The translations under genes were made by a program, and so were the position numbers. Below the pieces are notes generated by a model. It was given only the letters and a program-made list of their open reading frames with translations. It ran no database searches and was not told the origin of the DNA. Shown here piece by piece: positions 3,263 through 57,283 of a DNA stretch of 64,000 bases. Source of the DNA: an uncultured Candidatus Saccharibacteria bacterium. Its GTDB lineage: Bacteria > Patescibacteriota > CPR2_A > CAYFQT01. The stretch is taken from assembly GCA_964345445.1 (NCBI GenBank), contig CAYFQT010000026.1:5685-69684 (forward strand), written 5' to 3'. Position 1 is the first letter of the stretch. Each line of letters opens with the position of its first letter.

Positions 3263-3562
3263 CGTCGAAGTTATTCCACTATACATCCTGCTTCAGCAGG
3301 CTGCACCGCTCCATAAACTTCTCCTCTTTCTACAAAATACTAAAGTATTTTGTCGAGTTGAAAAAATTCTAAAGAATTTTTGCGAAAAAGGAGCATTGCT
3401 GAAGATGGAAACAAAATTTTTGAAGAAAATTTTGTGGAATCGGAGGTTGAAAATTTTACCCGTAAAAATTCTTCAGAATTTTTACGGAAAAGGAGAAGTA
3501 AAGCGAAAATTGGAATGATTTCTTAGGAAGAAATCATAAAAATGGCAGCTTTACTTCGACGT

Positions 3563-3635
3563 GCGGGTGTAGCTCAGTTGATAGAGCATCTGCTTGCCAT
3601 GCAGAAGGTCGTGGGTTTAAGTCCCATCACCCGCT
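3563..3635 (+). tRNA. tRNA-Gly (anticodon GCC)
   Basis: GCGGGTGTAGCTCAGTTGATAGAGC. Anticodon loop ttGCCat, discriminator U as expected for Gly. The overlapping ORF 3542-3817 translates the tRNA (AGVAQLIEH... artefact). Confidence 0.85.
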
Positions 3636-3817
3636 TCGTCGGAATAAACTTCCAGCTTTTGCGAATTTGTTTTACAAATTTGCTACCACTTTCAGTTTAT
3701 TCCTCCTCTTTCGCAAAAAATCTGACGATTTTTTGCAAGACAAAAACATTAGGTGACCTATTTTTCCTGTTTATAAGCGGGGCAGGGTCCGCGGTCTGCC
3801 TGCCCGCCAAAGCCTAG

Positions 3818-4103: not shown

Positions 4104-4368
4104 CGTCCAAATAAACTTTCAGTTTTCGCGATCTCACAAAGTGAAATCGCTGTCACTTACAGTTTATTCCTCCTCTTTCTTCAAAATACTAAAGTATTTT
4201 GACGAGTAAATATAATACTTCCGACTTTCATGATTTTGTAGAACAAAATCGTTCTTTTTTAAAAAATCCTTGATTTTTTGATTTATAAGACTTAAAATAA
4301 AATATCTATAAAGAACATTTACAATTAAATACAAGACGAAAATCAAAATTTTAAAGGAGTGATAGTTA

Positions 4369-5160
4369 ATGCTTAATCCGAAATTAACAACTGGAAGAGT
4401 TTTGGGGCATGAAAGTATAAAAAAAAGACTTTCTGGCCTTGAAGATTTGGGTATCAAAGAACCAGGTGTAAAAGTCTTAGAATTATGTAGGGAGAAAAAA
4501 CAACCTGAGGAATTAAAAATAGCCCGGGGATCGGGGAAGATTGTTGTTGATCCTCCTTATACTGAAAAAGATCTCAAAAAACTTCTGGGAAATGTTTCTC
4601 TTGATTTAGAACTTGGCAAAACTTTACGAATTCACACCAATCCCCATTCTCATCCTGTAAATCAAGGAGGAATGTTACAAGATCCTATAGTGGATCTTGA
4701 TGATAAAGATACTTTAAAACAAATTGAGAAACATGATGTTATTTTTGAACTTTCAGATGATAAGCCTTATATATTAACGCCAAGGTCTTTTGTTAAAGCA
4801 ATTACTCATCGAATCTATTGGCTACCTTATGATTTAGTGGGACTAATGGAAGGCAGGAGTAGAGTATGTCGTTGGGGAGTGGCAACGACGGTAAATGCAC
4901 CCAAAATCGATCCTGGTTTTTCAGGAGTAATAGTTTTAGAATTAACTAACTCAGGTGACTACCGATTTGCCCTTAGGAAAGGAATGGCAATCTCTCAAAT
5001 TATGTTTTTTCCTGTAGAAGGAAAAATCGGCAAACCTTATGATGAGACAGGGCGATTCGGAGGTCAAGATGATATCAGATATAGTTTCGCCCCAGATCCT
5101 TTATCAGATTTTTTTGAAATAACAAAACGTGACATTGTCCCTAAAGAAGATGAAAAATAA
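4369..5160 (+). CDS. dcd: dCTP deaminase family protein (dUTPase-fold), extended N-terminus
   Basis: RBS AAAGGAGTG. C-terminal half carries the KIDPGFSGVIVLELTN and GRFGGQ motifs of Dcd/dUTPase-like enzymes. Confidence 0.65.
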   Translation: MLNPKLTTGRVLGHESIKKRLSGLEDLGIKEPGVKVLELCREKKQPEELKIARGSGKIVVDPPYTEKDLKKLLGNVSLDLELGKTLRIHTNPHSHPVNQGGMLQDPIVDLDDKDTLKQIEKHDVIFELSDDKPYILTPRSFVKAITHRIYWLPYDLVGLMEGRSRVCRWGVATTVNAPKIDPGFSGVIVLELTNSGDYRFALRKGMAISQIMFFPVEGKIGKPYDETGRFGGQDDIRYSFAPDPLSDFFEITKRDIVPKEDEK

Positions 5161-5514
5161 TAGTAGAAAATTTTCCTACCCTTATATAGGTAAACCGTCA
5201 TTTAGTTGTTTTAAAAAAACATCTACTTGGCGGTTTTTTCTTTTGTCTAATTCTTAAATAATTTTTAGGCATAACACTTTTTAAGCCATGGCACAATAGT
5301 GTTATATTATAATTTGTTGCGAAATTCAGCTATGGCCTATTTTTGTTACAAAAAATAAAAGCCCACATTAAACTCATAAATATAAATGAGTAAAAGTGGG
5401 CTTTTTGTGTAATTATTTTATTAAACAAACAGAATAAAGATTATATTAGACTAATTTATTTTAAGATGGTAGAATAAGAATAAGATTTTTTGAAATTATA
5501 GACGGAGAGGAAGT

Positions 5515-6345
5515 TTGAAAAAATATTTACCAATTTTATTGATTGCATTAGTTATAATCACCGGCTATTTTACATATAGCTATTTGCCAAAAGAGGGAGG
5601 AACTTTTTTTGGCGGCAGCAAAGGAAATCAAGAGAATACTAAAGATTCTGATTTTTCTTTCATTGTTTGCGGGGATAGTCATACAAACGAAGAAGTGTAT
5701 CAGAAAATTATTCAAAAGGCCAATGAAAATCAAGTGAAATTTTTAGTTGATTTAGGAGATATAACTAGGGTTGGAGCCGAATCAGAATTTACAGATTTTA
5801 AATCTCTTGTAAACGGGCTGAAAATCCCTTATTATGTAGTTTGTGGAAACCATGATGTTCTAAATAGTGATTCATTTTTTAAAAAATATTTCGGTGATAC
5901 TTATTATTCCTGGAATTACAATGATGTTCATTTTATAGTTTTAGATGATACAACAGATGAGAATGTTTTTTCAGAAAAACAGCTTGGTTGGTTGGAAAAT
6001 GATTTACAGGATTATAAAGAAAAGTTAGTTTTTATTTTTGTTCACAAACCTCCAAAATGTCCTTTTGTTACCTCTGATTTATTGGAATTTGAAGGCAAAG
6101 AATCAGACCAAAGGATTGAAAGATTTTTAGATATAGCCAGGGAATATAAAATTGATAAAATATATTCAGGGCATATTCATAACCATTTAAGTTATTCTCA
6201 GGGAGGGATACCTATTACTATAACTGGGGGAGCAGGAGGACCAACTCACAGGATACCTGTTTTTGGCCAAGCAGATTTTCCTCATTTTTTGTTGGTAAAA
6301 ATTAAAGGAAAAGAGTATAATGAAGAAGTAGTAAGAGTAGAGTAA
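5515..6345 (+). CDS. calcineurin-like metallophosphoesterase with N-terminal TM anchor
   Basis: Motifs GDSH..., DLGD, GNHD and GHIHNH. TTG start with GGAGAGGAAG RBS. Confidence 0.75.
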   Translation: MKKYLPILLIALVIITGYFTYSYLPKEGGTFFGGSKGNQENTKDSDFSFIVCGDSHTNEEVYQKIIQKANENQVKFLVDLGDITRVGAESEFTDFKSLVNGLKIPYYVVCGNHDVLNSDSFFKKYFGDTYYSWNYNDVHFIVLDDTTDENVFSEKQLGWLENDLQDYKEKLVFIFVHKPPKCPFVTSDLLEFEGKESDQRIERFLDIAREYKIDKIYSGHIHNHLSYSQGGIPITITGGAGGPTHRIPVFGQADFPHFLLVKIKGKEYNEEVVRVE

Positions 6346-6432: not shown

Positions 6433-6464
6433 GGCAGAAATAACTAATAACTAAGGAGTGACAT

Positions 6465-6920
6465 ATGGAACCACAAAGCCAATTTGAAACTAAACCAAAG
6501 TTACCACCTAAACCTAGAAAATCAGGAATGAAAGGTCCAATTATTGCTGGATTGGTAGTAGGTGTAGTTATAGCTAGTATTTTTTGGTGGGTTGTTTTAA
6601 GAAAACAAACCAGCTCTGAAGTTAAAAGTCAACAAACAGAAACACAGGAACAAGAAACAGAATATAAGGATACAACTGATCAGGATACTTCAGGAGAAGT
6701 TACAGGAGAAACTTATATTGTTAAATCCGGTGATACTCTTTCTTCTATTGCAGTTAAATTTGATATAGAAGATTGGAGAGACTTAGCCCGAGCTAATAAT
6801 TTAGAAGAGCCATATTCTTTGAAAGTAGGAGATGAACTGATAATTCCTACGGGAGAAACAAAAGGAGAAAGTACAGGAGAGTATAAAGAATATGATGAGA
6901 AAGGAGAAGAAATACCTTAA
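6465..6920 (+). CDS. LysM domain protein with N-terminal TM
   Basis: LysM signature YIVKSGDTLSSIAVKF...LARANNL....LKVGDELIIP. RBS AAGGAGTG. Confidence 0.7.
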   Translation: MEPQSQFETKPKLPPKPRKSGMKGPIIAGLVVGVVIASIFWWVVLRKQTSSEVKSQQTETQEQETEYKDTTDQDTSGEVTGETYIVKSGDTLSSIAVKFDIEDWRDLARANNLEEPYSLKVGDELIIPTGETKGESTGEYKEYDEKGEEIP

Positions 6921-7013
6921 TTGAGATACTAAATAACTAAAGCACTAAAAAAAATGAACTAAAAACTAAGAACTAATTAAAGATATTAATATTAATTTTA
7001 GAGGAGGTAAATT

Positions 7014-8326: not shown

Positions 8327-9226
8327 TTGTATAACCAAATAGATTCTAATAAAAGAAAAACAATTATTTTAATTGGAATTTTTTTAATATTTATTATTGG
8401 AATAGCTTGGGTTTTTTCCCAAGCCTTAGATAATCCTTTTATTGTTCCAATTGCAGTCATATTCGCTATAGTAATGAGTATCTCTTCTTACTGGTATTCT
8501 GATAAGATTACCTTATTTATTTCTGGAGCAAAAGAAATTAAACATAGTGAGAACCCAGAGCTTTATCATATTGTAGAAAATCTATGTATCACTGCTGGGC
8601 TTCCTATACCTAGAATTTATATAATCTCCGATTCTGCACCTAATGCTTTTGCTACAGGAAGAGATCCCAAACACGCAGTAATTTGTGTAACTTCTGGACT
8701 TTTGCAAAAATTAGATAAGCCTGAACTGGAAGGAGTAATTGCTCATGAACTTTCTCATATCGGGAATTATGATATTAGATTAATGACCATTGTTGTTGTT
8801 TTGGTGGGAATAGTGGCATTGCTCTCTGATTTTTTCTTACGCTGGACTTGGTGGGGAAGAGGAGGAAGAGACAGTGAAGGTGCAGGACAACTGCGTATGA
8901 TATTATTTATTGTTGGATTAGTTTTAGCTATTTTATCTCCTATAATTGCTACTTTAATTCAATTGGCTATCTCTCGTAAAAGAGAATTTTTGGCTGATGC
9001 AAAAGGTGCTCTTTTAACTCGCTATCCTGAAGGATTAGCCAGGGCTTTAGAGAAAATATCTGGTGATACAGAACCACTTGAAGCAGCTAATAAAGCCACT
9101 GCTCATCTTTATATAACCAACCCTTTAAAAGAACATAAAGGAAAATCAAGAGGTTGGTTTGCTGGTTTATTTAACACTCATCCACCGGTTGAGGAAAGAA
9201 TTGCTAAACTTAGAGAAATGGCTTAA
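8327..9226 (+). CDS. htpX: zinc metalloprotease HtpX (M48 family)
   Basis: HELSH zinc motif at AHELSHIGNYD. Four TM helices and the typical HtpX N-terminus. Confidence 0.85.
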   Translation: MYNQIDSNKRKTIILIGIFLIFIIGIAWVFSQALDNPFIVPIAVIFAIVMSISSYWYSDKITLFISGAKEIKHSENPELYHIVENLCITAGLPIPRIYIISDSAPNAFATGRDPKHAVICVTSGLLQKLDKPELEGVIAHELSHIGNYDIRLMTIVVVLVGIVALLSDFFLRWTWWGRGGRDSEGAGQLRMILFIVGLVLAILSPIIATLIQLAISRKREFLADAKGALLTRYPEGLARALEKISGDTEPLEAANKATAHLYITNPLKEHKGKSRGWFAGLFNTHPPVEERIAKLREMA

Positions 9227-13059: not shown

Positions 13060-13318
13060 TCCCTATAATTAATTACAACAATAAATTACAAGACTAGTAG
13101 TTCAAGATCAGTAATTAAAGATTATTAATATAGTGTAGTTATATAGTTATAAGTTTTTACAACACTATTTTACGATCGGCCGAAAAGCGTTGTAAAAATT
13201 TAGTCCAATTTTTGTATAAATTTTATATATTTGTAAAATATCTGTACAATCTATCTCTTAATCTGCGTAAAAAAATCAGTGATATTATATCAAACACAAT
13301 TAGTATTATAAAAAAATA

Positions 13319-14992: not shown

Positions 14993-15059
14993 TTTTGCAA
15001 CCTTTAGTAACTTATAGCAACTATTAGCAACTATTAGTAACTTATATTTACTAATTAAA

Positions 15060-16646
15060 ATGAATTTAGAAAATCTTACAATTTTACAAGCTCATAAGAA
15101 GCTGAAAAATAAAGAGACTTCATCGGTTGAATTAACCAAAGCAGTTTTGGATAGAATTAAAAAGACTGATAATAAGATTAATGCTTTTATTACAGTCACA
15201 GAAAAAGAAGCATTAAAACAAGCAGAAGAGGCTGACAAACGGATTAAAACTGGAAAGATGCTGAGTAAACTTGATGGAATTCCAGTGGCTCTAAAAGACA
15301 ATATGGCAACAGAAGGAATTTTAACAACAGCTGGTTCTAAGATTTTAGAGAATTTTAAACCGCCTTATGATGCTACAGTTGTTAAAAAAATAAAAGATGC
15401 TGGTGCTATTATTATTGGCAAAACCAATATGGATGAGTTTGCCATGGGTTCTTCTTGTGAAACTTCTTATTTTGGTCCTACGAAAAATCCTTGGGATACA
15501 TCCCGAGTTCCTGGTGGCTCTTCAGGAGGTTCTGCAGCGGCTGTTTCAGCTTCACAATGCATTTATGCCCTGGGTTCTGATACCGGTGGTTCTATTCGCC
15601 AACCAGCCTCTTTTTGTGGTTGTGTAGGCTTAAAACCTACTTATGGTCGAGTATCTCGATATGGTCTTTTGGCTATGGCCTCTTCTTTGGATCAAATTGG
15701 ACCACTTGTAAAAAATACAGAAGATGCAGCAGCAGTTTTGGAGGCTATTTCTGGATATGATGGGGAAGATAGCACAAGCGTAGACAAAAAGTTCAAAGTT
15801 CAAAGTTCAAAGTTCAAAGTTTTAAAAAATGTAAAAATTGGGATTGCTAAGGAGTATTTTAGGGAAGGTTTAGATAAAAAAGTTGAAGATAAGATAAAAT
15901 CAGCGATTAAAGTTTTAGAGTCAAGGGGAGCCAAGATTGAAAATGTTAGCTTACCTCATACTCAATATACCTTAGCTTGCTATTATATAATTATGCCTTC
16001 AGAAGCTTCCACTAATTTAGCCAGATATGATGGAATAAAATATGGATATTCAACCACTCAAATCTCAAATCTCAACTCTCAAAACTTATTAGATGTCTAT
16101 CTACAATCAAGGGCAGAAGGTTTTGGAGATGAGGTAAAAAGGCGAATAATGTTAGGAACTCATACATTATCTTCAGGTTATTATGATCAATATTACTTAA
16201 AAGCTGCTAAAGTTAGAACAAAAATAAAAGAAGATTTTGACAAAGCATTTTCTAAAGTGGATGTTTTAATAACTCCTACTTCACCAACTGTTGCTTTTCC
16301 ACTCGGGGAAAAGTTAGATGATCCATTGACTATGTATTTATCGGATATTTATACAGTACCGGTTAATTTAGCCGGAGTGCCGGCAATTTCTGTTCCTTGT
16401 GGACTAGTTAAAAAGGTTACTAAAAGTTACCAAAAGGATACTAAAAAGTTACTAAAGAGAGTTGATAAAAATACTTTTAGTAACAATTTGCAACCCCTAG
16501 TAACCCCTAGTAGCTCATTATTACCTGTAGGTTTACAAATAATAGGTCCTCAGTGGGGAGAAGAGAAAATTCTACAAACAGCTTATATCTATGAACAGGC
16601 AACAAAAGATGAGGGGTGGAGGAAATTAAAGCCAAGTATAAAGTAA
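15060..16646 (+). CDS. gatA: Glu-tRNA(Gln) amidotransferase subunit A, with in-frame repeat insertions
   Basis: Amidase signature [11 protein letters not shown], plus [10 protein letters not shown] and the catalytic Ser/Lys context. Three low-complexity inserts are encoded by short DNA repeats. Confidence 0.9.
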
Positions 16647-16746
16647 TAGTAATAAGTAATAAGGAATCAAGAATAAAGGGTTAGGAATTAGGAATAGGGA
16701 ATAAGTAGTACTCCTTATAACTAATAACGGATAACTAGGAGCACAT

Positions 16747-18598: not shown

Positions 18599-20131
18599 AT
18601 GGAATATCAGACAATAATTGGATTAGAAATCCATGTACAATTGAAGACAAAATCTAAAATGTTCTGCAGATGTGATAATTATTCAGTGGATGCCAAGCCA
18701 AATATTAATACCTGCCCAGTATGTATGGGAATGCCTGGAACTCTTCCAGTGATAAACCAGCAAGCTATAGAATGGGCAGAAAAGACCGCCTTGGCTTTAA
18801 ATTGTAAAATTTCCTCATTCACTAAATTTGATCGAAAAAGCTATTTCTATCCGGACTTACCCAAAGGATATCAGATATCCCAATATGATATGCCTTTAGC
18901 GGTAGGAGGATGGTTGGATATTGATGTGCCAGAGTCAAAAGTTCAAAGTTCAAAGTCTAAAGTCCAAAATAAGATGTATACTAGAAGAATTAAAATCACT
19001 AGGTTGCATATGGAAGAAGATGCAGCAAAGTTAATTCATTCCGTAAAGGGACGTGGTCCCTACGGGACTTTACGTCCAGAGGTGGCAGATTATAGTTTGG
19101 TTGATTTTAACCGTGCCGGAACTCCACTTATGGAAATTGTTACAGAACCTGACCTAAGCTCCCCACTTGAAGCAAAGATTTTTATGCAGGAGTTAAGAAG
19201 TATTTTGCGATATTTAGATGTTTCTGAAGCTGATATGGAGGAGGGAAATTTGAGATGTGATGCTAATATATCATTAAGTCCAAAGTCCAAAATCCAAAGT
19301 CCAAAGTTGGGGGAGAAGGTGGAAATTAAAAATATAAACTCTTTTAAGGCTGTAGAGAAAGCTTTAGCTTACGAAGTGGAAAGGCAAAAGGATATTTTAG
19401 AAAGTGGGGACAAGATAGTTCAAGAAACTAGAGGCTGGATGGAAGATAAAGGCAGAACAATCTCCCAGCGAGGCAAAGAAGAAGCAGAAGACTATCGTTA
19501 TTTTCCCGAACCAGACTTGCCACCATTGGAATTTGAAAAAAAACAAGTAAAAGAAATTCAATCGAAATTACCTGAATTGCCTAACCAGCGCCAAAGAAGA
19601 TTTGTTAAAGAATATGACCTGTCAATGTATGATGCTCAGGTTTTAACTTCTGAGAAAGAAACATCTGTCTTTTTTGAAGACACAGTTCAAAAAATATCCA
19701 AATTAAATCACGAAAAGGCCAAGAGGGCGTGCAACTGGATAACAACGGAATTGCAATATTTACTTAAGGATAAAGATATAGATATTAGCAAATGCAAAAT
19801 TAAACCAAAGGATTTAGCCGAGCTTATTGGATTAATTGACAAAGGAGAAATCTCAGGGAAAATAGCCAAAGATGTATTCGTAGAAATGTTTAATTCCGGA
19901 AAAGCCCCTTCGGAAATTGTGAGTAAAAAAGGATTAAGACAAGTTAGTGATGAAGGAGAATTAGAGAAAATTATAGATAAAATTATATCTCAAAATAAAC
20001 AAGCAGTTTCTGATTATAAAGAAGGAAAGGAAAATGCATTTAAGTTTTTAGTAGGGCAGACAATGGCTTCTACCCGCGGTCAAGCCAATCCTCAGATGGT
20101 TAATAAGATATTGAAGGAAAAATTGAAATAA
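18599..20131 (+). CDS. gatB: Asp/Glu-tRNA amidotransferase subunit B, with two in-frame repeat insertions
   Basis: MEYQTIIGLEIHVQLKTKSKMFC.C...GMPGTLP and DFNRAGTPLMEIVTEPD match GatB. It carries a C-terminal GatB/YqeY domain. Confidence 0.9.
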   Translation: MEYQTIIGLEIHVQLKTKSKMFCRCDNYSVDAKPNINTCPVCMGMPGTLPVINQQAIEWAEKTALALNCKISSFTKFDRKSYFYPDLPKGYQISQYDMPLAVGGWLDIDVPESKVQSSKSKVQNKMYTRRIKITRLHMEEDAAKLIHSVKGRGPYGTLRPEVADYSLVDFNRAGTPLMEIVTEPDLSSPLEAKIFMQELRSILRYLDVSEADMEEGNLRCDANISLSPKSKIQSPKLGEKVEIKNINSFKAVEKALAYEVERQKDILESGDKIVQETRGWMEDKGRTISQRGKEEAEDYRYFPEPDLPPLEFEKKQVKEIQSKLPELPNQRQRRFVKEYDLSMYDAQVLTSEKETSVFFEDTVQKISKLNHEKAKRACNWITTELQYLLKDKDIDISKCKIKPKDLAELIGLIDKGEISGKIAKDVFVEMFNSGKAPSEIVSKKGLRQVSDEGELEKIIDKIISQNKQAVSDYKEGKENAFKFLVGQTMASTRGQANPQMVNKILKEKLK

Positions 20132-20457
20132 TTCGAAGAATATTGAGAATTACTAATGAACAATTGCTAATTTCTAATCAAATCCCAATGACTAATAAAG
20201 AAACAAAATTCTAAATCCGAAATTCTAAATACTAAATCCTAAATCCCAACGGGATCCCTTCGGGACAATATCAAATGACCAAAATGCTACCACAGCCCCA
20301 CCCAACCACCCTTTTATTGTATAGATTATATAACAAAACAATATAAGTTTAGAACATTGGAAAATTTGAATTTTGAATTTATTTAGGATTTAGAAATTAG
20401 ATATTAGAAATTTTATAAGATAAGTTAATTGTGTTATATTAAAACCAAGGAAAAATA

Positions 20458-21099
20458 ATGCGAAGAAAAAGAAAAGCAAAAGTTACAATAGAAGAAGATG
20501 AAGAAGTTACAACGGGTTGGTCCAAAGTCCAGAAATATTTGGAAGAGAAGAATATCAATTCTTTTCTTTTAGCTGTTTTAGAAGCTGATAAATTATTAGC
20601 CAAGGCATTAAAAGATAAAGGTTATCCTGGCAAGACCACCCAGGAGAAGATTGGAGCAGCCAAGGAAAAATTTACCAATATCAATTTTCTTCTTGGTGCA
20701 AGAGATATACGAGATAAGATTATTAATAAAATAGATTATAATCTTTCTTCTTTGGATTTAGAAGATGCTATTTCTGCCTATAGGCAAGCCATAATTGATT
20801 TAGGAGAAGAATCAGAGAAATTACCTATTTCTGAAAGATTATTACTTCTTTTTCATTATTATTATCCTTCTAAAAAACAAGCACTTAAAAAAATTATTAT
20901 TTATATAGTTTTATTTTTTACAATAGTTTGGTTTTTGTCTCATACTTCACTAGGACAAAATATTGTTAATATTGTAGTAGGAGTAACCAATATTATTTTC
21001 AGTTGGGTTTTAGCAATAGTTTTGTTGGTTGTGGGAGTTATAATTACGGTGATTGCAAGTCTTTTGTATTTTGAGAAAAGAAGGAAGGAAAGAAGATGA
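20458..21099 (+). CDS. hypothetical membrane protein
   Basis: Charged N-terminus, then two to three TM segments (IIIYIVLFFTIVWFL..., IVLLVVGVIITVIASLLYF). Confidence 0.4.
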   Translation: MRRKRKAKVTIEEDEEVTTGWSKVQKYLEEKNINSFLLAVLEADKLLAKALKDKGYPGKTTQEKIGAAKEKFTNINFLLGARDIRDKIINKIDYNLSSLDLEDAISAYRQAIIDLGEESEKLPISERLLLLFHYYYPSKKQALKKIIIYIVLFFTIVWFLSHTSLGQNIVNIVVGVTNIIFSWVLAIVLLVVGVIITVIASLLYFEKRRKERR

Positions 21100-21258
21100 T
21101 GTAAAAATTCTAAATCCGAAATCCTAAACAATATCTAAATTCCAATGTTCAAAATTCTAAACATTATATTTGTTTTGGTCATTTGGATTTAGATATTAGG
21201 ATTTGTTTAGAAATTAGATATTAGAAATTAGGATTTTAATTTAAAGGGGTGAACAAAT

Positions 21259-31311: not shown

Positions 31312-31628
31312 TGAAAAATATTGAGAATTTTGGGTGTGGAGACCCCGGTGCTTTGCACTGATATACACTATAAAGGGTCTCTTTTTTGTTTAATTATATT
31401 AAGTACCCAAAATATCTAGTAGTTAGTGTTATAATATTTTTTTATCTTTTAATTTAAAATAAATAACATTAGATCACAAAATTCAGCTATCGCATATTTT
31501 TGTGACAATGGAAGTTGTATAACCGAAGATTATTGGATTATTAGTATCTAAAATTATCCAAGAGTGTTATAATATTTTTAGAATATATTTTTTATAAAGA
31601 TTAAAATTAGCACCTTTGGTGTAGAATT

Positions 31629-39243: not shown

Positions 39244-39399
39244 AAATGTTAGATACCCGTTCTCTAACAAGGTTGAGTCTTCGGACAAGGTTAATAGAGG
39301 TCTTCTATTAATTAATTCTTAAATTTTCTTTTATTCCCAGATCACAAAAAAATGCGATCGCACATCTTTGTGACGGAATTAAATTATATAAATTATAAA

Positions 39400-39923: not shown

Positions 39924-40625
39924 ATGAGATTTAAGAAACTTTCCAGAAATTTTTATAATAGAAATACTTTAAGTATTGCTCAGGAGCTTTTGGGGAAATA
40001 TTTGGTAAGGCAAATAGGGCAGGAAGGTCAGGCAGGAAGGATTGTGGAGACAGAAGCCTATATTGGTCAGGATGATGATGCTTGTCACGCATCTCGTGGC
40101 AAGACAAGACGAAACGAAGTGATGTTTGGCTCTGCGGGCCATGCCTATGTTTATATGATTTATGGAATATATTGGTGTTTGAATATTGTAACAGAGAAAA
40201 AAAGATTTCCCGCTGCTGTTTTGATCCGTGCCTTAGAACCAGTAGAAAGTAGAAGGAATAGGGAATTAGAAATAAGTAATAAGGAATTAGTGATTAGGAA
40301 TAAGAAGCTTTTGAAAAATACGGGACAAGTAGGAATGAGTAGAATTAAGACAGATTCCATATTCCTTGGAACTAATACTTATACTCTCACTAATGGGCCA
40401 GGAAAGTTATGCCGGTGGATGAAAATTACCAAAGAATTAAATGGTGAAGATTTAGTAAATTCTGATAGATTATGGGTTGAAGATAGGAGAGAGAAAATTT
40501 TTAAAAAAGATATCATAAAAACCACCAGAGTAGGTGTTGACTATGCCCAAAATTCCAAAGGCCACCCCTGGCGGTTTTATATAAAGAACAGTCCTTTTGT
40601 TTCCAAAAAGATGAAATTTTTTTAA
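39924..40625 (+). CDS. mpg: DNA-3-methyladenine glycosylase (Mpg/AAG family) with an in-frame repeat-derived insertion
   Basis: IAQELLGKYLVR...GRIVETEAYIGQDD.ACHASRG.T.RN.VMFG.AGHAYVYMIYG...LN is canonical. An insert of about 35 aa precedes LTNGPGKLC. Confidence 0.8.
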   Translation: MRFKKLSRNFYNRNTLSIAQELLGKYLVRQIGQEGQAGRIVETEAYIGQDDDACHASRGKTRRNEVMFGSAGHAYVYMIYGIYWCLNIVTEKKRFPAAVLIRALEPVESRRNRELEISNKELVIRNKKLLKNTGQVGMSRIKTDSIFLGTNTYTLTNGPGKLCRWMKITKELNGEDLVNSDRLWVEDRREKIFKKDIIKTTRVGVDYAQNSKGHPWRFYIKNSPFVSKKMKFF

Positions 40626-41036
40626 AGAATATTTACCGATTTCTTAAATCATAGTAGTATTTTCAGTAAATATTTTTATAACGCTTTTCTGGCGACCGTC
40701 CCGATTTTCATCATTAAAGTTTGTAAATAAAAGTAATCGAGGATCCTGACTTCCTTAAATTAAAAAGTATAAAGTCGGGACAATATATTTTTGTAATTTT
40801 AAATACCCCACTTTTCATGCCATGGCAAAATAGTTTGGTAAATTCTCATATTTCACTTTTTAAGCCATGGCACAATAGTGTTATATAGAAAACATATAAA
40901 AAAAGACCGAAGCTGTGAATATATAATAAATAACTTCGGTCCCCAACCTCTCCTGCATATTATAATCAATAATAAGTGCGGGGGATTTTTCATATAGAAG
41001 AGGTTGGGGTTTGTTCGGAATAAGATCACTTCTGTT

Positions 41037-41204
41037 CTCGCCAATATATCTCTTGTTTGTTCTGCTCAAGTTCGTTGAGTTTTTTTACACGAGACTTATC
41101 CTTAGTATCAGGATTTTTTAAATCATGATCTTCGAAGGTTAGTAAAACAACTCCTGTTCCAGGATCTATTTCTCGGTCGGTAATGGTTTCCATTTCTCCG
41201 TGCC
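41037..41204 (-). CDS. possible 55-aa small ORF downstream of the minus-strand promoter
   Basis: GGAGG 10 nt before the ATG. METITDREIDPGTGVVLLTFEDHDLKNPDTKDKSRVKKLNELEQNKQEIYWREQK. Not in the ORF track (<60 aa). Confidence 0.25.
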
Positions 41205-41344
41205 CCTCCTGACTGGGTAGTAGATTAGTACAAAGATTCTAAAGGTCTCGCAAAGTTCTGGCATTAAATCTGTCCCTCTAAACCTCACCTCCTTCTGTAT
41301 AGTAGTTTTCAGGTTGAAAAATGTTAAATTTTCAAAGAATAAAA

Positions 41345-41375
41345 CATTATAGCAAACAAAAAAGCAAAAGTCAAG
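41345..41375 (-). promoter_or_regulatory. near-consensus sigma70-type promoter on the minus strand (TTGACT-17-TATAAT)
   Basis: Reverse complement reads cTTGACTtttgcttttttgtttgcTATAATg. It lies downstream of the PBP1A terminator hairpin at 41395-41440. Confidence 0.45.
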
Positions 41376-41460
41376 GATTTTGTAAAAAAAAATAAAAAAC
41401 CACCTAGAAAAGTTTGGGTTAGGTGGTTTTATTTAATAGAAATTACATTTTGTTTTTCAA

Positions 41461-44265
41461 TTATGGGAAAGTGGTGTCGGTGGCAGAGGGGGAATAGGAA
41501 CTGTTGTTTCCAGCAGCATCATAGGCTCTCACCCGGTACCAATATTGAGTATTATTAAAAAGACCAGAATTTGGATATGAAGTACCTAAAGTAGTGTCAA
41601 TTTGTGTCCAAGGGCCACCTGCGCCTGTCATTGATCTTTCAATTATATACCCATCTACTGCAACATCATCAGTGGAAGCTCCCCAAGATAAATTAATCTG
41701 CACTTGACTTACTGCAGTTGCTGTAAGCCAAGCAGGAGCAGAAGTATCAGCGGAAACTTTAACTTTTATTTTATCTTCTGCTGAATAATTCCCTTTGTCA
41801 TATACTCGAGCTGTAAGATTATGAATTCCTGTTGCTGTAGTTGTATAAGTAGCCCCATAAGGGGAATTATAATCAGTAGCTATTGGAGTACTATCAAAAT
41901 AAAATTCTACTCTTGCAACTCCTAAAGGAGCATTCACACTAGCAGTAATTGTAATTGGATTACTTACAGTAGTTCCATTGGCAGGTGAAGTAATGGAAAT
42001 AGTAGGTTTATTGCCGCCTGTGTGAATGTCACAATCTTCTTCTGGAGCATAATTGCCCCCTCCATGACTGTAACCCCAAGACTTTACTGGTTTCTCCCAA
42101 TTATTATATTGGGGATCATCCTGGGGATTTTTGGGTATAGGGCCTAAAGGATTTTCTATATCAACATAATGCAGAATGCAATGGGCTTCAGAGAATTCTT
42201 TTTCTTGGACAACCTCAGAAGGACATTGATCTGTTGCTTTTTTGCCAGATGTTGTGCAGATTTTAATTTTTTCACCCTGAGCGCCAGTTTTCCCTTTAAT
42301 AACTTTTTTGTCACTTGTACTTCCTTTTAATTTATAAGACTTATTGAAACTTTCTGAAGGCATTCCGGATAAAGCTTTTTCCATATATTCATGCCAAGCA
42401 GGAGCAGCAGCATAAATCCCTGCGGCTCCTTTCCTCATTACAGAATTGTCATTATTGCCTGCCCAAACTCCACAGGATAGATTGGGGGTATAACCAACAG
42501 TCCAAGCATCTCTATATTCTTCAGTGGTTCCTGTTTTGGCAGCAGCTTCTCGAGACAATCTCAAAGATGATGAAGAACCAAAAGCAGGTGCTCTAGCATT
42601 ATTGTCCGAAAGAACATCATTTATGGCCCGGGCAACATTTTCATCTAAAACTTTTTCTCCTCTGTCTTTATATTCTTCTATAATCTTACCATTGGGATCT
42701 TCAATTTTTAAAATAGGTGTTTTTTGGTGTTTTATACCTTCTGTAGCAAAGGTGGACATTGAAGCAGTATGATCTAGAAGTTTAACTTCACCGCCGCCTA
42801 AAACCAAAGAAAGTCCATAGCGGGAAGGCTCTCCTAGTGTGGTGATTCCCATTTTATGGGCTGTTGATAAAGCATCCTCCATTCCTACTAAATATAAAGT
42901 TTTTACAGCAGGTATGTTTAAAGAACGGGCTAGAGCATCTTTCATTGAAACTGGTCCTGACTGGCTTAGGTCATAATTTTTTGGTTTATAATTGTTGCCA
43001 AAATCAGTATTTAAGTCAAATAATGTTGTATCAGGCGTATATCCTTTTTCAAATGCTGCAGCATATATATAGGGTTTCATAGATGAACCTGGCTGGCGAT
43101 CACGAGTAGTAACATTAACATTGCCGTCAATATCTTTATTCCAATAATCTCGGGAGCCAATCATAGCTAAAATTTGACCAGTTTTGGGGTCAGTGGATAC
43201 CAAAGCAGTATTGGAAGCCCCCCAAGAGGAGGCATTTTTGTTTCCATATTTGGTTACAACTTCTTCAGCTATAGCTTGTTTTTGAGGGTCTAATGTGGTT
43301 GTTACTTTCAGTCCCCCTTCTTCCACCATTTTTTCTCCATATTTTTCTACTAATATTTCCCTTACATACATTACAAAATGGGGGGATGATATACTTTCTC
43401 TTTGTTCTGAAAAAACTATTTTTGTTGCTTTTGCTCCCTCGGCCTCCTCACGGGTTATATACCCTTGCTCTACCATTTTGTCTAAGATGATATTTTTTCT
43501 TGCTTCCAGTTCATCAGTATGAGTGCCATAAGGAGAATAATAAGTGGGTGCTTTTGGTAAGGCAGCAAGTAAAGTACATTCAGGGAGATTTAAATTTTGG
43601 GCTTTCTTTCCAAAGAAAGTTTGAGCAGCTGCCTCAACCCCATAAGCACTGGAGCCATAAGGAATTTCATTAAGATACATTTTCAGAATATCATCTTTAG
43701 AATATATCATTTCAATTTCAATAGAGAGAATTAATTCTTTGATTTTTCTGGAGAAAGTTCTTTCAGGAGTTAAGATAGCATTTTTCACAAACTGTTGGGT
43801 GATGGTACTTCCACCCTGCATTTTTTGTTTATGGGTGATGTTGTATAAACCCGCTCGGGCAATCCCCCTGATATCAAAACCATGATGTCGATAAAAATCC
43901 TTATCTTCAATAGCCACAGTAGCATCTTTGATATATTGAGGCATTTGGTCAAAATCAATTAAAGTTCTTTTTTTATCCCCGTGAATTTCATATAAGAGAT
44001 TTCCCTCACGATCAAAGATTTGGGTTGATTGAGCAATAGTTCGGGCATTAATTTTATTAGGAGAAGGAAGATCTTTAGCAAACCAGGCAAAGAGCAGAAT
44101 TATAAGCAATAAAAGACCAACCCCAGAATACAAAACAACTCTTTTGAAATTTCTCCAGGTAAGATATCTCCTGAAGTTTTTTAAAGCCCCAGCCTTTTTG
44201 CTCACCTTAAGTTGGCTTAATTTTGCCAATGCTTTGGATTTTTTGTAATCTGACATATTGTTCAC
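41461..44265 (-). CDS. class A penicillin-binding protein (PBP1A: transglycosylase + transpeptidase) with C-terminal Big/FN3-like domains
   Basis: GT51 motifs (EDKDFYRHHG, GGSTITQQ). Transpeptidase motifs SSMKP, SLN and KTGT. C-terminal beta-sandwich repeats. N-terminal TM. Confidence 0.9.
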   Translation of the reverse strand: MNNMSDYKKSKALAKLSQLKVSKKAGALKNFRRYLTWRNFKRVVLYSGVGLLLLIILLFAWFAKDLPSPNKINARTIAQSTQIFDREGNLLYEIHGDKKRTLIDFDQMPQYIKDATVAIEDKDFYRHHGFDIRGIARAGLYNITHKQKMQGGSTITQQFVKNAILTPERTFSRKIKELILSIEIEMIYSKDDILKMYLNEIPYGSSAYGVEAAAQTFFGKKAQNLNLPECTLLAALPKAPTYYSPYGTHTDELEARKNIILDKMVEQGYITREEAEGAKATKIVFSEQRESISSPHFVMYVREILVEKYGEKMVEEGGLKVTTTLDPQKQAIAEEVVTKYGNKNASSWGASNTALVSTDPKTGQILAMIGSRDYWNKDIDGNVNVTTRDRQPGSSMKPYIYAAAFEKGYTPDTTLFDLNTDFGNNYKPKNYDLSQSGPVSMKDALARSLNIPAVKTLYLVGMEDALSTAHKMGITTLGEPSRYGLSLVLGGGEVKLLDHTASMSTFATEGIKHQKTPILKIEDPNGKIIEEYKDRGEKVLDENVARAINDVLSDNNARAPAFGSSSSLRLSREAAAKTGTTEEYRDAWTVGYTPNLSCGVWAGNNDNSVMRKGAAGIYAAAPAWHEYMEKALSGMPSESFNKSYKLKGSTSDKKVIKGKTGAQGEKIKICTTSGKKATDQCPSEVVQEKEFSEAHCILHYVDIENPLGPIPKNPQDDPQYNNWEKPVKSWGYSHGGGNYAPEEDCDIHTGGNKPTISITSPANGTTVSNPITITASVNAPLGVARVEFYFDSTPIATDYNSPYGATYTTTATGIHNLTARVYDKGNYSAEDKIKVKVSADTSAPAWLTATAVSQVQINLSWGASTDDVAVDGYIIERSMTGAGGPWTQIDTTLGTSYPNSGLFNNTQYWYRVRAYDAAGNNSSYSPSATDTTFP

Positions 44266-51094: not shown

Positions 51095-52396
51095 ATGAAA
51101 GTAGAAAAAGAAAAATTACCTAAAAGTCAAATAAAATTAACCATTAAGGTTCCTGTACATGATGTGAATAATTTTTTAGACCAAGCTTATAGACGCTTGG
51201 CTGAAAAAGTGAAAATTCCTGGTTTTCGTCCTGGAAAAGCTCCTCGTTTTATGATAGATCAAGAGGTAGGTACAGACAAAGTTCAGGAACAGACTTTAGA
51301 AATTGCTGTATCTCAAACATATTTTCAAGCAGTATCTTCTGAGAAAATTGTTCCAATTGCCAAACCAGAAGTGAAAATTTTAAAATTTGCCAAAGGCAAT
51401 TCCTTAGTATATGAGGCGATAGTTCCAATAATGCCTGAGGTTATCTTAGACGACTACAAGAAGAAAGTTGGTTCTTTATCTTTAAAACCTGAAAAAATTT
51501 CAGTTGGTCAAAAAGATATAGATGAGGCTCTTTTAGGTCTGCAAAAAAGTAAAGCAGAATTTATTTCAACATCTCGATCCGCTCGTAAAGGCGATAGAGT
51601 AGAGATTGATTTTGATGCTTCAATTAATAGGGTCCCTTTGGAAAAAGGCAAAAGCAGGAATCACCCACTTATAATTGGAGATGGAATGTTTGTTCCAGGA
51701 TTTGAAGATAATTTAATTGGAATGAAAAAAAATGAGAAAAAAGAATTTTCCATTGTTTTTCCTAAAGATTATCTCAAGAGAGAATTGGCAGGTGAAAAAG
51801 TAGATTTTAAAGTTCTCCTAAAAGATATTCGAGAAGTTAAATTACCTCCTTTGAATGATAAGTTTGCAAAAGAAGTAACCAAAATAGATTCTCTTTCGGA
51901 ACTTAAAGAAGATATTAAAAAAAGATTGCAAATAGAGAAAGAAAAAAGACAAAAAATAGAGTTTGAATCAAAAATAATAGAAGAAGTTGTGAATTGTGCC
52001 CGTACAGAGACACCGGAGATTTTAGTAGAAGAAGAAATTAAATCAATGATTTCCGAATTAAAAAATCGATTAGAAAATCAAGGATTAAAATTGGAACAAT
52101 ATTTAAAAAATATTAAAAAGAAGGAGGAAGATTTAAAACAAGAATATAAAAAAGAGGCGGAAAAAAGAATTAAAACTGCGTTAGTATTGAATAAAATAGC
52201 CCTTAAAGAGAAAATTAAAGTTACAGATAAAGATGTACAAAATGAGTTTGATAGGATGATTAAAGCTTATCCTCAAGAGGTAGATAAGATAAAAGAAAAA
52301 CTTTCTTCTGATAAAGATAAGCAGTATGTAAGAAATATCTTGCGGAATCAAAAAACAATAAAAAGATTAATGGAATTAGCAAATAGAAATGACTAA
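51095..52396 (+). CDS. tig: trigger factor
   Basis: N-terminal ribosome-binding domain (GFRPGKAPR), FKBP-like PPIase middle domain, C-terminal helical arms. 433 aa. Confidence 0.85.
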   Translation: MKVEKEKLPKSQIKLTIKVPVHDVNNFLDQAYRRLAEKVKIPGFRPGKAPRFMIDQEVGTDKVQEQTLEIAVSQTYFQAVSSEKIVPIAKPEVKILKFAKGNSLVYEAIVPIMPEVILDDYKKKVGSLSLKPEKISVGQKDIDEALLGLQKSKAEFISTSRSARKGDRVEIDFDASINRVPLEKGKSRNHPLIIGDGMFVPGFEDNLIGMKKNEKKEFSIVFPKDYLKRELAGEKVDFKVLLKDIREVKLPPLNDKFAKEVTKIDSLSELKEDIKKRLQIEKEKRQKIEFESKIIEEVVNCARTETPEILVEEEIKSMISELKNRLENQGLKLEQYLKNIKKKEEDLKQEYKKEAEKRIKTALVLNKIALKEKIKVTDKDVQNEFDRMIKAYPQEVDKIKEKLSSDKDKQYVRNILRNQKTIKRLMELANRND

Positions 52397-52724
52397 TGAC
52401 CAATTACTAATTCTTAATCAAATCCTAATGATAAATAAAAATGTCAAATGACTAATTTTAAAATACCAAATAAAATCCAAATGGCTAATGACAAAATATT
52501 TAGAAATTTAATAATTTATTTATTGATTTGGCATTTGGATTTTGATATTAGACATTAATTAGACTTACTTTGACTTGCCGAAGGCGAGGCAGGCATTAGG
52601 TCAACCTGTGACTAATGCAAGCATAGTGTTGCAGGCGGGTTAGAAATTAGAAATTTTACATATATGCTATCAATTATTATTTGTATAAAGTTTAGCGTTA
52701 TTTTGTGTTTAAAAGGAGGGAGAT

Positions 52725-56646: not shown

Positions 56647-57283
56647 TTTAAAAATTTCAGGGTCAATTCGGTGAGATTTTGTTTATATATGTTGAAATAA
56701 GCTGAAATCTTGCAGTCTTGACCCTCTTTTTTATATTAATTCTATTTACAAATATACGCGATCGCGGTATATTGTTAATGATTATTAATAAGAAATGTTA
56801 TTTTTGTTGCCTTTGTTACTTTTGTTACATCTGTTATTTCACCCCTTGCATTGCTTTTTCTTTTTGTGTATAGTAAAATATGTTATAATAAAGATAGTTC
56901 AAATTGTTCAATCGTTTGTTTTACTCACTTATTCAGAATGTTCAAATTGTTGTCATGAATTTCTCTCGAATTATATCGAATTAAATCCCGAATTTGAACA
57001 CGAATAGAATATTCGAGTATTATTTGTGTAGATATTCGCATACTATTGGAGAATGATTCGTGAAATTTCCTTAATTGACATTATTTTTAGATATATGTTA
57101 GACTAAAAAAGGTGGGTTTTATTCTAAGAGACAAGTAATTGAATATTTTTATATAACCTCGTTTTTTCTTTGATTATAAGGGAAGAGAAGGAGGGATATT
57201 TTCTATTTGTTAGTTAGATTAATATTAATATTGAAAAGTAAAGTGTAACCAATTTATAAAACAATAAATGAGGGAAATAAATT

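Follow-up and report, generated by a model that had tools for sequence, protein, structure and literature searches.

Short palindromes dispersed between the genes of a bacterium raise the question of whether they are operators read by a regulator or repeats that copy themselves, and the 64,000-nt stretch of DNA analysed here (the window) raises it with a repeated 33-mer at 5275-5307 and a companion motif, which the sequence-only reading had taken for repressor operators or for REP/MITE units. The window has 33% G+C, genes mostly in one orientation and the gene order clpC-radA-yacL, and its YacL has homologues in CPR/Patescibacteria lineages such as Kazan, CPR2 and Parcubacteria. CPR bacteria have tiny genomes with few recognisable regulators, and to our knowledge almost no operators in them have been established by experiment.

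The repeat itself was borne out by the analysis. The 33-mer CACTTTTTAAGCCATGGCACAATAGTGTTATAT occurs exactly twice in the window, the second time at 40854-40886, with matches in 0 of 100 shuffles; only the start first given for the 5275-5307 copy was off by one nucleotide. The 8-bp inverted arms described around a central palindrome are likewise present and delimit a complete unit of 35 nt, M1, which reads ATAACACT-TTTTAA-GCCATGGC-ACAAT-AGTGTTAT, with the arms ATAACACT/AGTGTTAT around GCCATGGC (Table 1). The first copy has the dcd terminator on one side and a hairpin-plus-terminator block on the other, and the second lies in the convergent gap of the MPG glycosylase and PBP1 genes. The degenerate copy suspected near 40809-40840 could be refined to the diverged element M1', 45 nt upstream of M1 copy 2, with which it forms a direct tandem with a 10-nt gap.

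The companion motif, M2, fared less evenly. It was found as TCACAAAA-N16-TTTTGTGA at 31474-31505 and as TCACAAA-N18-TTTGTGA at 39342-39373, about 9 nt away from the 39330-39366 first proposed for the latter, and shuffles gave a mean of 0.02 matches. Beside the first M1 copy, where a further example had been claimed, there is indeed an element (5314-5349), although it resembles M2-B at only the level given in Table 1 and its arms pair, or fold, only if G-T (G-U) pairs are admitted. The proposed pairing of M1 with the TCACAAAA motif holds only at 5271-5349; elsewhere each occurs alone. Two further elements complete the set, one a V-type element with the core CGATCGGCCG between TTTACAAC and GTTGTAAA, the other a palindrome (56744-56779) that lies about 100 nt beyond the end of one gene and 500 nt upstream of rpoB. 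All these window elements, M1 and M2 included, form a single family of nested palindromes, 32-42 bp in total length, with AT-rich inverted arms of 7-9 bp, spacers of 4-8 nt and a GC-rich central palindrome of 6-10 bp (for example GCCATGGC, GCGATCGC or GCTATCGC). All eight window elements are intergenic, and every one of the three CGATCG sites of the window falls within them, as do three of the five CCATGG sites. Neither avoidance of restriction sites (CCATGG and CGATCG are not depleted outside the elements) nor the cyanobacterial HIP1 repeat (GCGATCGC occurs only twice in the window, and the homologues of its YacL come from CPR bacteria) explains the family.

Table 1. Nested palindromes of the window, and palindromes around PaaX-like genes at other loci
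Element or locus	Position	Strand	Description
M1 copy 1 (full 35-nt nested palindrome)	5271..5305	+	exact unit
M2', degenerate M2-type, TTGCGAAA-TTCA-GCTATGGC-CTAT-TTTTGTTA	5314..5351	+	75% identical to M2-B
V-type element, TTTACAAC-GCTTTTCGGCCGATCGTAAAATAGT-GTTGTAAA (minus-strand reading)	13156..13196	-	convergent gap after ligA
M2-B, AGA-TCACAAAA-TTCA-GCTATCGC-ATAT-TTTTGTGA-C	31471..31506	+	120 nt upstream of rnhB
M2-C, AGA-TCACAAA-AAAAT-GCGATCGC-ACATC-TTTGTGA-C	39339..39374	+	about 100 nt past the yacL stop codon
M1', diverged M1 with old-type arms ACCCCACT/AGTTTGGT	40805..40839	+	26/35 identical to the M1 unit
M1 copy 2, left arm ATTTCACT	40850..40884	+	exact 33-mer at 40854-40886
Near-perfect palindrome, ATTTACAA-ATATAC-GCGATCGC-GGTATA-TTGTTAAT	56744..56779	.	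same nested build
L022, P0146, 77% identical to the L011 protein; from the sample of L014			ACCAAACT-ATTGTGCCATGGCTTAAAA-AGTGTGGT on both sides
L020/L019, P0147, 74% identical to the L011 protein			AACCAAA...GCGGTCGC/GCGATAGC...TTTGGTT, two copies upstream and one downstream
L024, Moranbacteria, 39% identical			upstream GGATGTCA-N8-CATATG-N8-TGACACCC; downstream AGATGTCA-N8-CATATG-N8-TGACACCC
L023, 43% identical, gene within an operon			upstream GCGGTCGCTTCT core only

Other repeats share the gaps of the window. Intergenic tandem repeats with units of 7-10 nt (TTAGTAACT/TTAGCAACT, AGTTCAA, AAATTCT/AAATCCT) occupy many of them (14994-15053, 15790-15829, 16638-16702, 18933-18972, 19277-19316, 20148-20248, 21104-21236 and 52388-52563), and the gene at 20458-21099 has arrays on both sides, inverted relative to each other. 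A second family of repeated hairpins (12-bp stem, 4-nt loop; CGACAAAATAC-TTTA-GTATTTTGTCG and variants) adjoins tRNA genes and precedes some protein genes, both in the window (3321-3379, 4170-4228), L011 (~3450-3480) and L006 (~6915-6945) and in the relatives L012 (2771-2798, 10864-10891) and L014 (64-91), where the arms of the variant TCACAAAAATTCTAAAGAATTTTTGTGA are those of M2. Stand-alone GIY-YIG nuclease genes of about 90 aa lie between tRNA genes in the window (3542-3817), L011 (3061-3333) and L012 (3534-3791).

The observation that makes the family interpretable lies outside the window. A generic scan for nested palindromes exposed, at L009, a 180-aa gene between two copies of TTCATTTAC-TTATAYT-CACGATCGTG-RTATATRG-TAAATGAG (a type also given as TCATTTAC...CACGATCGTG...GTAAATGA), and the loci of further homologues were then fetched, so that the bracketing sample comprised six gene loci. 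At L011 a 173-aa gene (P0145) lies between two M1 copies, M1 thus being the type that brackets a gene on another contig of this organism, and the proteins bracketed at L009 and L011, whose mutual identity is 37%, both belong to PaaX_M (PF20803). A matched palindrome pair surrounds five of the six PaaX_M genes, and each bracketed PaaX-like protein has its own palindrome type: the L022 palindromes keep the M1 interior with both arms changed, and those of L024 can be summarised as GATGTCA...CATATG...TGACACC. The types recur among the solo elements of the window, since the arms of M1' are those that flank the orthologous PaaX-like gene in L022, and the palindrome at 56744-56779 is identical at 27/35 positions to the pair around the L009 gene. 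The flanking pairs are single copies in direct orientation, the upstream one 42-163 nt before the annotated start. As a control, 156 ORFs of at least 100 aa were examined for a direct match of at least 24/30 between 200 nt of upstream and 150 nt of downstream flank; of the seven ORFs with such a match five are PaaX_M genes, as against 2/150 other ORFs, whose flanks were unrelated tandem repeats or terminator modules. No PaaX_M gene was found within the window and no PaaX_M relative in viral contigs, and our literature search found no paper joining PaaX with CPR or PaaX with Cas2. That type-specific nested palindromes consistently bracket PaaX-like genes in CPR bacteria is a new finding. At L020 (158-5519) the PaaX-like gene and its three palindromes are about 2 kb away from dnaA-dnaN-DciA, in what is probably the vicinity of the replication origin.

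The bracketed proteins, of about 175 aa, consist of an N-terminal winged helix and a Cas2-like domain. Pfam assigns them to PaaX_M (E = 3e-23) with a weak Cas2 match besides; PF20803 is the only PaaX domain in them, as they end after the Cas2-like domain and the ligand-binding PaaX_C domain is absent. A structure model (pLDDT 86.7) gave E. coli PaaX (8a39, E = 5e-6), Rv0674 and a Jannaschia PaaX-like protein as its best full-length matches, and the separate halves match winged-helix DNA binders (AspA, TubR, MarR) and Cas2. The Cas2-like motif WDGKWRVVIFDIPE...R...LGF..LQKSVW is conserved, and many PaaX-like proteins carry the name 'CRISPR-associated endonuclease Cas2' at NCBI. Proteins of the AspA/TubR type bind palindromic DNA repeats beside their own genes, and AspA of pNOB8 and TubR, both centromere binders, share the fold of the N-terminal winged helix; unlike in those systems, no partner ATPase or GTPase is encoded nearby and the sites are dispersed rather than clustered, and these matches are confined to a single domain with sequence E-values above 0.1.

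Given this setting, we lean, with guarded confidence, towards regarding the nested palindromes as putative cognate sites of the short PaaX-like proteins, which have also been copied around the genome. The putative operator reading rests on palindromes of the same build that bracket the PaaX_M genes and on the known geometry of the PaaX operator, and together these lend it strong but indirect support. In E. coli, PaaX represses its own promoter and its operator is TGATTC-N27-GAATCA (PMC9493321). The CPR system resembles it in the fold of the protein (a winged helix joined to the Cas2-like PaaX middle domain, as the best structural match and Pfam both indicate), in short inverted half-sites with a long spacer of about 2-3 helical turns (here arms of 7-9 bp with 16-25 bp between them) and in a PaaX-family gene that lies beside the site for M1, at L011, and for four other types. 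The differences are equally plain: the CPR proteins lack the C-terminal domain that senses phenylacetyl-CoA and keep a Cas2-like invariant Asp, the sites possess a conserved GC-rich central palindrome and stand on each side of the gene, one site type is identical at seven or more loci, and no phenylacetate genes lie nearby. Mechanistically, a protein dimer would sit on the site, with its two winged helices reading arms centred 27-33 bp from each other and the Cas2-like dimer placed over the central palindrome. The upstream copy would overlap the promoter of the gene and bring about autorepression, the downstream copy, 11-92 nt past the stop codon, would close the unit, and the M1 copies of the window would be extra sites made through copy-paste of the 35-mer, which might act on neighbouring genes as a roadblock, by repression or not at all. 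A downstream site is unexpected under simple autoregulation and counts against this proposal, as do the solo copies in convergent gaps or after stop codons, in both orientations, that are absent at orthologous sites in a relative.

These observations were complemented by the way in which arms, cores and proteins vary. Over nine elements of the M1/V lineage, which are related by descent, three pairs have changed on both sides in mirror symmetry, and in the same related sequences 87% of cells are paired, compared with 79% in shuffles (0/500 attain 87%) and with 23-48% after the partner has been slid. P0146 and P0147 have almost the same presumed recognition helix, DLKS[M/I]NSTLYSLKTRGY, both of which have arms of the AACCAAA type, and P0145, with TAACAC arms, differs from it at five positions; the GCCATGGC core and a near-identical Cas2-like domain are common to P0145 and P0146, and P0147 differs in both. 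Protein and site thus appear to vary together, in what is simply a correlation among three proteins. Between L011 and L022 the 19-nt M1 interior matches at 19/19 and 18/19 positions, compared with only 77% identity for the proteins, and such conservation between species points to a function beyond recent copying. Promoter overlap is clear at one or two of the five upstream copies. Specifically, at L024 the upstream palindrome contains in its right arm the -35 box of a consensus promoter (TTGACA-18-TATAAT), which ends 14 nt short of the start codon that a 216-aa homologue makes probable, and at L022 a -10 box abuts the palindrome arm; the promoter match at the upstream palindrome of L011, L009 and L020 is weak or none.

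The distribution of M1 adds a second process to this picture. A 23-nt M1 core pattern was scanned over one genome per species from 185,579 species, in which the 35-mer is absent and the sole core match is a chance one in a GC-rich Lachnospiraceae coding gene; M1 is thus confined to a narrow lineage unrepresented in that collection, from which the source species is apparently missing as well. No viral contig matched the core pattern. It was found in eight metagenome contigs from the related assemblies JABAOC, JABAOF and JABAOH, and we infer that the contigs L006-L011 and L019-L020 derive from the genome of the same organism as the window. After removal of overlapping contigs, the identical 35-mer is present at at least seven distinct loci, namely 5271 and 40850 in the window and five outside it in metagenome contigs (L011 2233 and 2866, L006 7364, L007/L009 and L008), and a hybrid copy lies at L011 3779. 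Three contigs end inside M1, as repeats break assemblies. The flanks of the seven loci are unrelated, have no duplicated bases in common and show no target-site duplication, and the copies are identical at 35/35 positions, the non-symmetric spacers included, which is unusual among operators and indicates recent copying. Their placement is mixed: some follow stop codons or dnaK, others occupy convergent gaps or precede the rplC operon. Neither position nor orientation relative to genes is consistent, and both L011 copies are antisense and point into genes. Two segments near the tandem at 40805-40884 deserve mention on their own. A homologous segment of about 75 nt (window 40738-40790, L011 ~3560-3640) adjoins old-type M1 copies at both loci, and its hairpin shows covariation in the stem (CCTGACTT/AAGTCGGG in the window, CCGGTTT/AAACCGG in L011), with no Rfam match. 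On the minus strand of the window, at ~41045-41212, an ORF of about 55 aa (METITDREIDPGTG...) follows a Shine-Dalgarno-like sequence, an upstream leader that reaches to ~41330 and a strong promoter-like site (TTGACT-17-TATAAT, 41374-41346), and it ends at a long hairpin (CCCCAACCTCT...AGAGGTTGGGG) common to the convergent gene, in a region conserved in L015.

Comparison with relatives shows which elements are kept. In L014, whose metallophosphoesterase is 83% identical to that of the window, the site orthologous to window position 5271 carries a V-type element (ACAACGCTTTTTAACCGATCGTCATATAGTGTTGT) that differs from M1 in one arm pair (T:A to C:G) and one core pair (C:G to G:C), each changed on both sides, and that is 30/35 identical to the window V-type element. 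The next 190 nt, which take in M2', a terminator and the downstream gene's promoter, are about 95% identical, as against 83% for the adjacent protein. In the window this block (5310-5500) comprises the M2' hairpin, the terminator (5358-5408) and the promoter (TAGACT-17-TAGAAT, 5447-5475); it may represent a leader or a small RNA. The syntenic relative L012/L015 (contig SDBS01000068, 74-82% protein identity) offers a different picture: M2-B and M2-C are both missing in the orthologous gaps of L015, as is a stretch of about 280 nt with M1' and M1 copy 2, and L012 conserves no more than the right half of the element that follows ligA. Element density there is about one per 42 kb, compared with eight per 64 kb in the window. 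In L012, between dcd and the metallophosphoesterase gene, a terminator module (AACCGCCT...AGGCGGTTTTTTCTTTTATAAATYTGCAAAAAACC) occurs three times in an inserted region (5924-5991, 6443-6510 and 8523-8563), on each occasion after a small ORF. Conservation in related genomes, which the sequence-only reading had linked to a regulatory role, is thus partial, with M2' kept at 36/38 positions in L014 and three of five compared sites absent from the syntenic relative. With these absences, the post-stop and convergent positions and both orientations, the window copies do not behave like a conserved regulon. As identical 35-mers at sites that are empty in the relative rule out point mutation, a copy-paste process is needed; the solo M1 copies must have spread in this way, as in REP/RAYT systems, with no HUH transposase involved, and they may have no regulatory role. 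The original alternative of operators or REP/MITE units was therefore partly right on both counts, given the PaaX_M bracketing and the copy-paste of seven identical 35-mers, with the exception of MITEs, which have terminal inverted repeats, a target-site duplication and a length of 50-500 bp, for which M1 with 35 nt is too short and lacks the duplication.

Copying of this kind makes a REP/RAYT-like replicator the most serious rival, although we consider it unlikely: the palindromes would be non-autonomous selfish elements cut and copied by a wHTH-Cas2-like enzyme with the Cas2-like nuclease fold, the gene with its flanks would be the master copy, and any regulatory effect would be incidental. 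The RAYT genes, of about 500 bp, are flanked by their own repeat type, one type per paralogue, and gene and repeat appear to co-evolve (PMC3337134); the short single PaaX-like gene of about 520 bp, likewise accompanied by its own type, and the short, extragenic, imperfect palindromes in multiple copies fit this pattern. The seven identical 35-mers amid unrelated flanks with contigs broken inside them, the element presence that varies between syntenic relatives, the differing gene neighbourhoods of the orthologous unit in L011 and L022, and diverged old-type copies (window 40805, L011 3779) beside uniform new-type ones all favour a replicator, as does the Asp of the Cas2-like 'FDIP' motif, which is invariant in 42 homologues and missing in E. 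coli PaaX by alignment. Against it, the protein is not an HUH/Y1 (IS200-like) transposase, with no HUH, His-x-His or Tyr motif in its invariant columns and no transposase domain by Pfam, and we know of no nuclease activity in PaaX-family proteins. The copies are single or direct (the tandem at 40805/40850) and not inverted doublets, no target-site duplication is seen, only about seven copies are known rather than hundreds, the conserved GTAG head of REP sequences is missing, and the interior is conserved between species. On the strength of the missing HUH/Tyr motif and of repeats that are not inverted doublets, we rank putative PaaX-like sites above the replicator. A reading that combines the two, in which a winged-helix-Cas2-like protein recognises and also propagates its own 35-42 bp palindromes as a hitherto undescribed CPR gene-plus-repeat system, strikes us as more doubtful still.

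The elements could instead act as RNA, transcribed as hairpins in 3' UTRs or small RNAs and serving as stabilisers, processing sites or terminators. Several copies lie directly past stop codons and ahead of terminators, M2' pairs only with G-U on the plus strand and belongs, with its terminator, to the block that is about 95% conserved in L014, and arm changes are compensatory. We nevertheless regard this as improbable, as the folds have little stability (-4.5 to -8.4 kcal/mol; z-scores no stronger than -0.2 to -2.9), a stable hairpin tip cannot be formed by the central GCCATGGC, the element is not followed by a T-tract, the copies face either way with respect to transcription, the wobble evidence is contradictory among loci, and both the PaaX_M bracketing and the -35 box within a palindrome are left unexplained. 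Rfam 15 returned only tRNAs at gathering score in the window and L011, and nothing but tRNAs at E-value level in 5160-5520, 40620-41470 and L011. That M1 is a duplicated promoter, its right arm GTGTTATAT serving as an extended -10 that drives small transcripts, seems highly improbable: GTGTTATAWT occurs five times in the window, on the coding strand every time, and a hairpin plus terminator follows M1 copy 1, but a usable -10 hexamer follows only three of the seven M1 copies, with inconsistent -10 sequences, both L011 copies run antisense into genes, and no sigma-70-like match was scored at M1. A CRISPR or TIGR array (layout in PMC12045711) can be dismissed, since the copies are dispersed and the sole tandem pair has a 10-nt gap.

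Overall, the bracketing of PaaX-like genes makes M1 and M2 interpretable and directly testable as putative sites of these proteins. Own-palindrome bracketing as a rule would supply testable protein-site pairs across the CPR radiation, together with a natural series for reading the joint change of recognition helix and half-site, and the PaaX-like identity would correct a widespread 'Cas2' misannotation. If the protein also spreads its sites, the REP/RAYT arrangement would have been invented a second time, independently, and the system, if true, would be functionally analogous to RAYT/REPIN with a Cas2-type fold in place of the HUH transposase; in it a Cas2 homologue would be linked to partly palindromic repeats of about 35 nt outside CRISPR.
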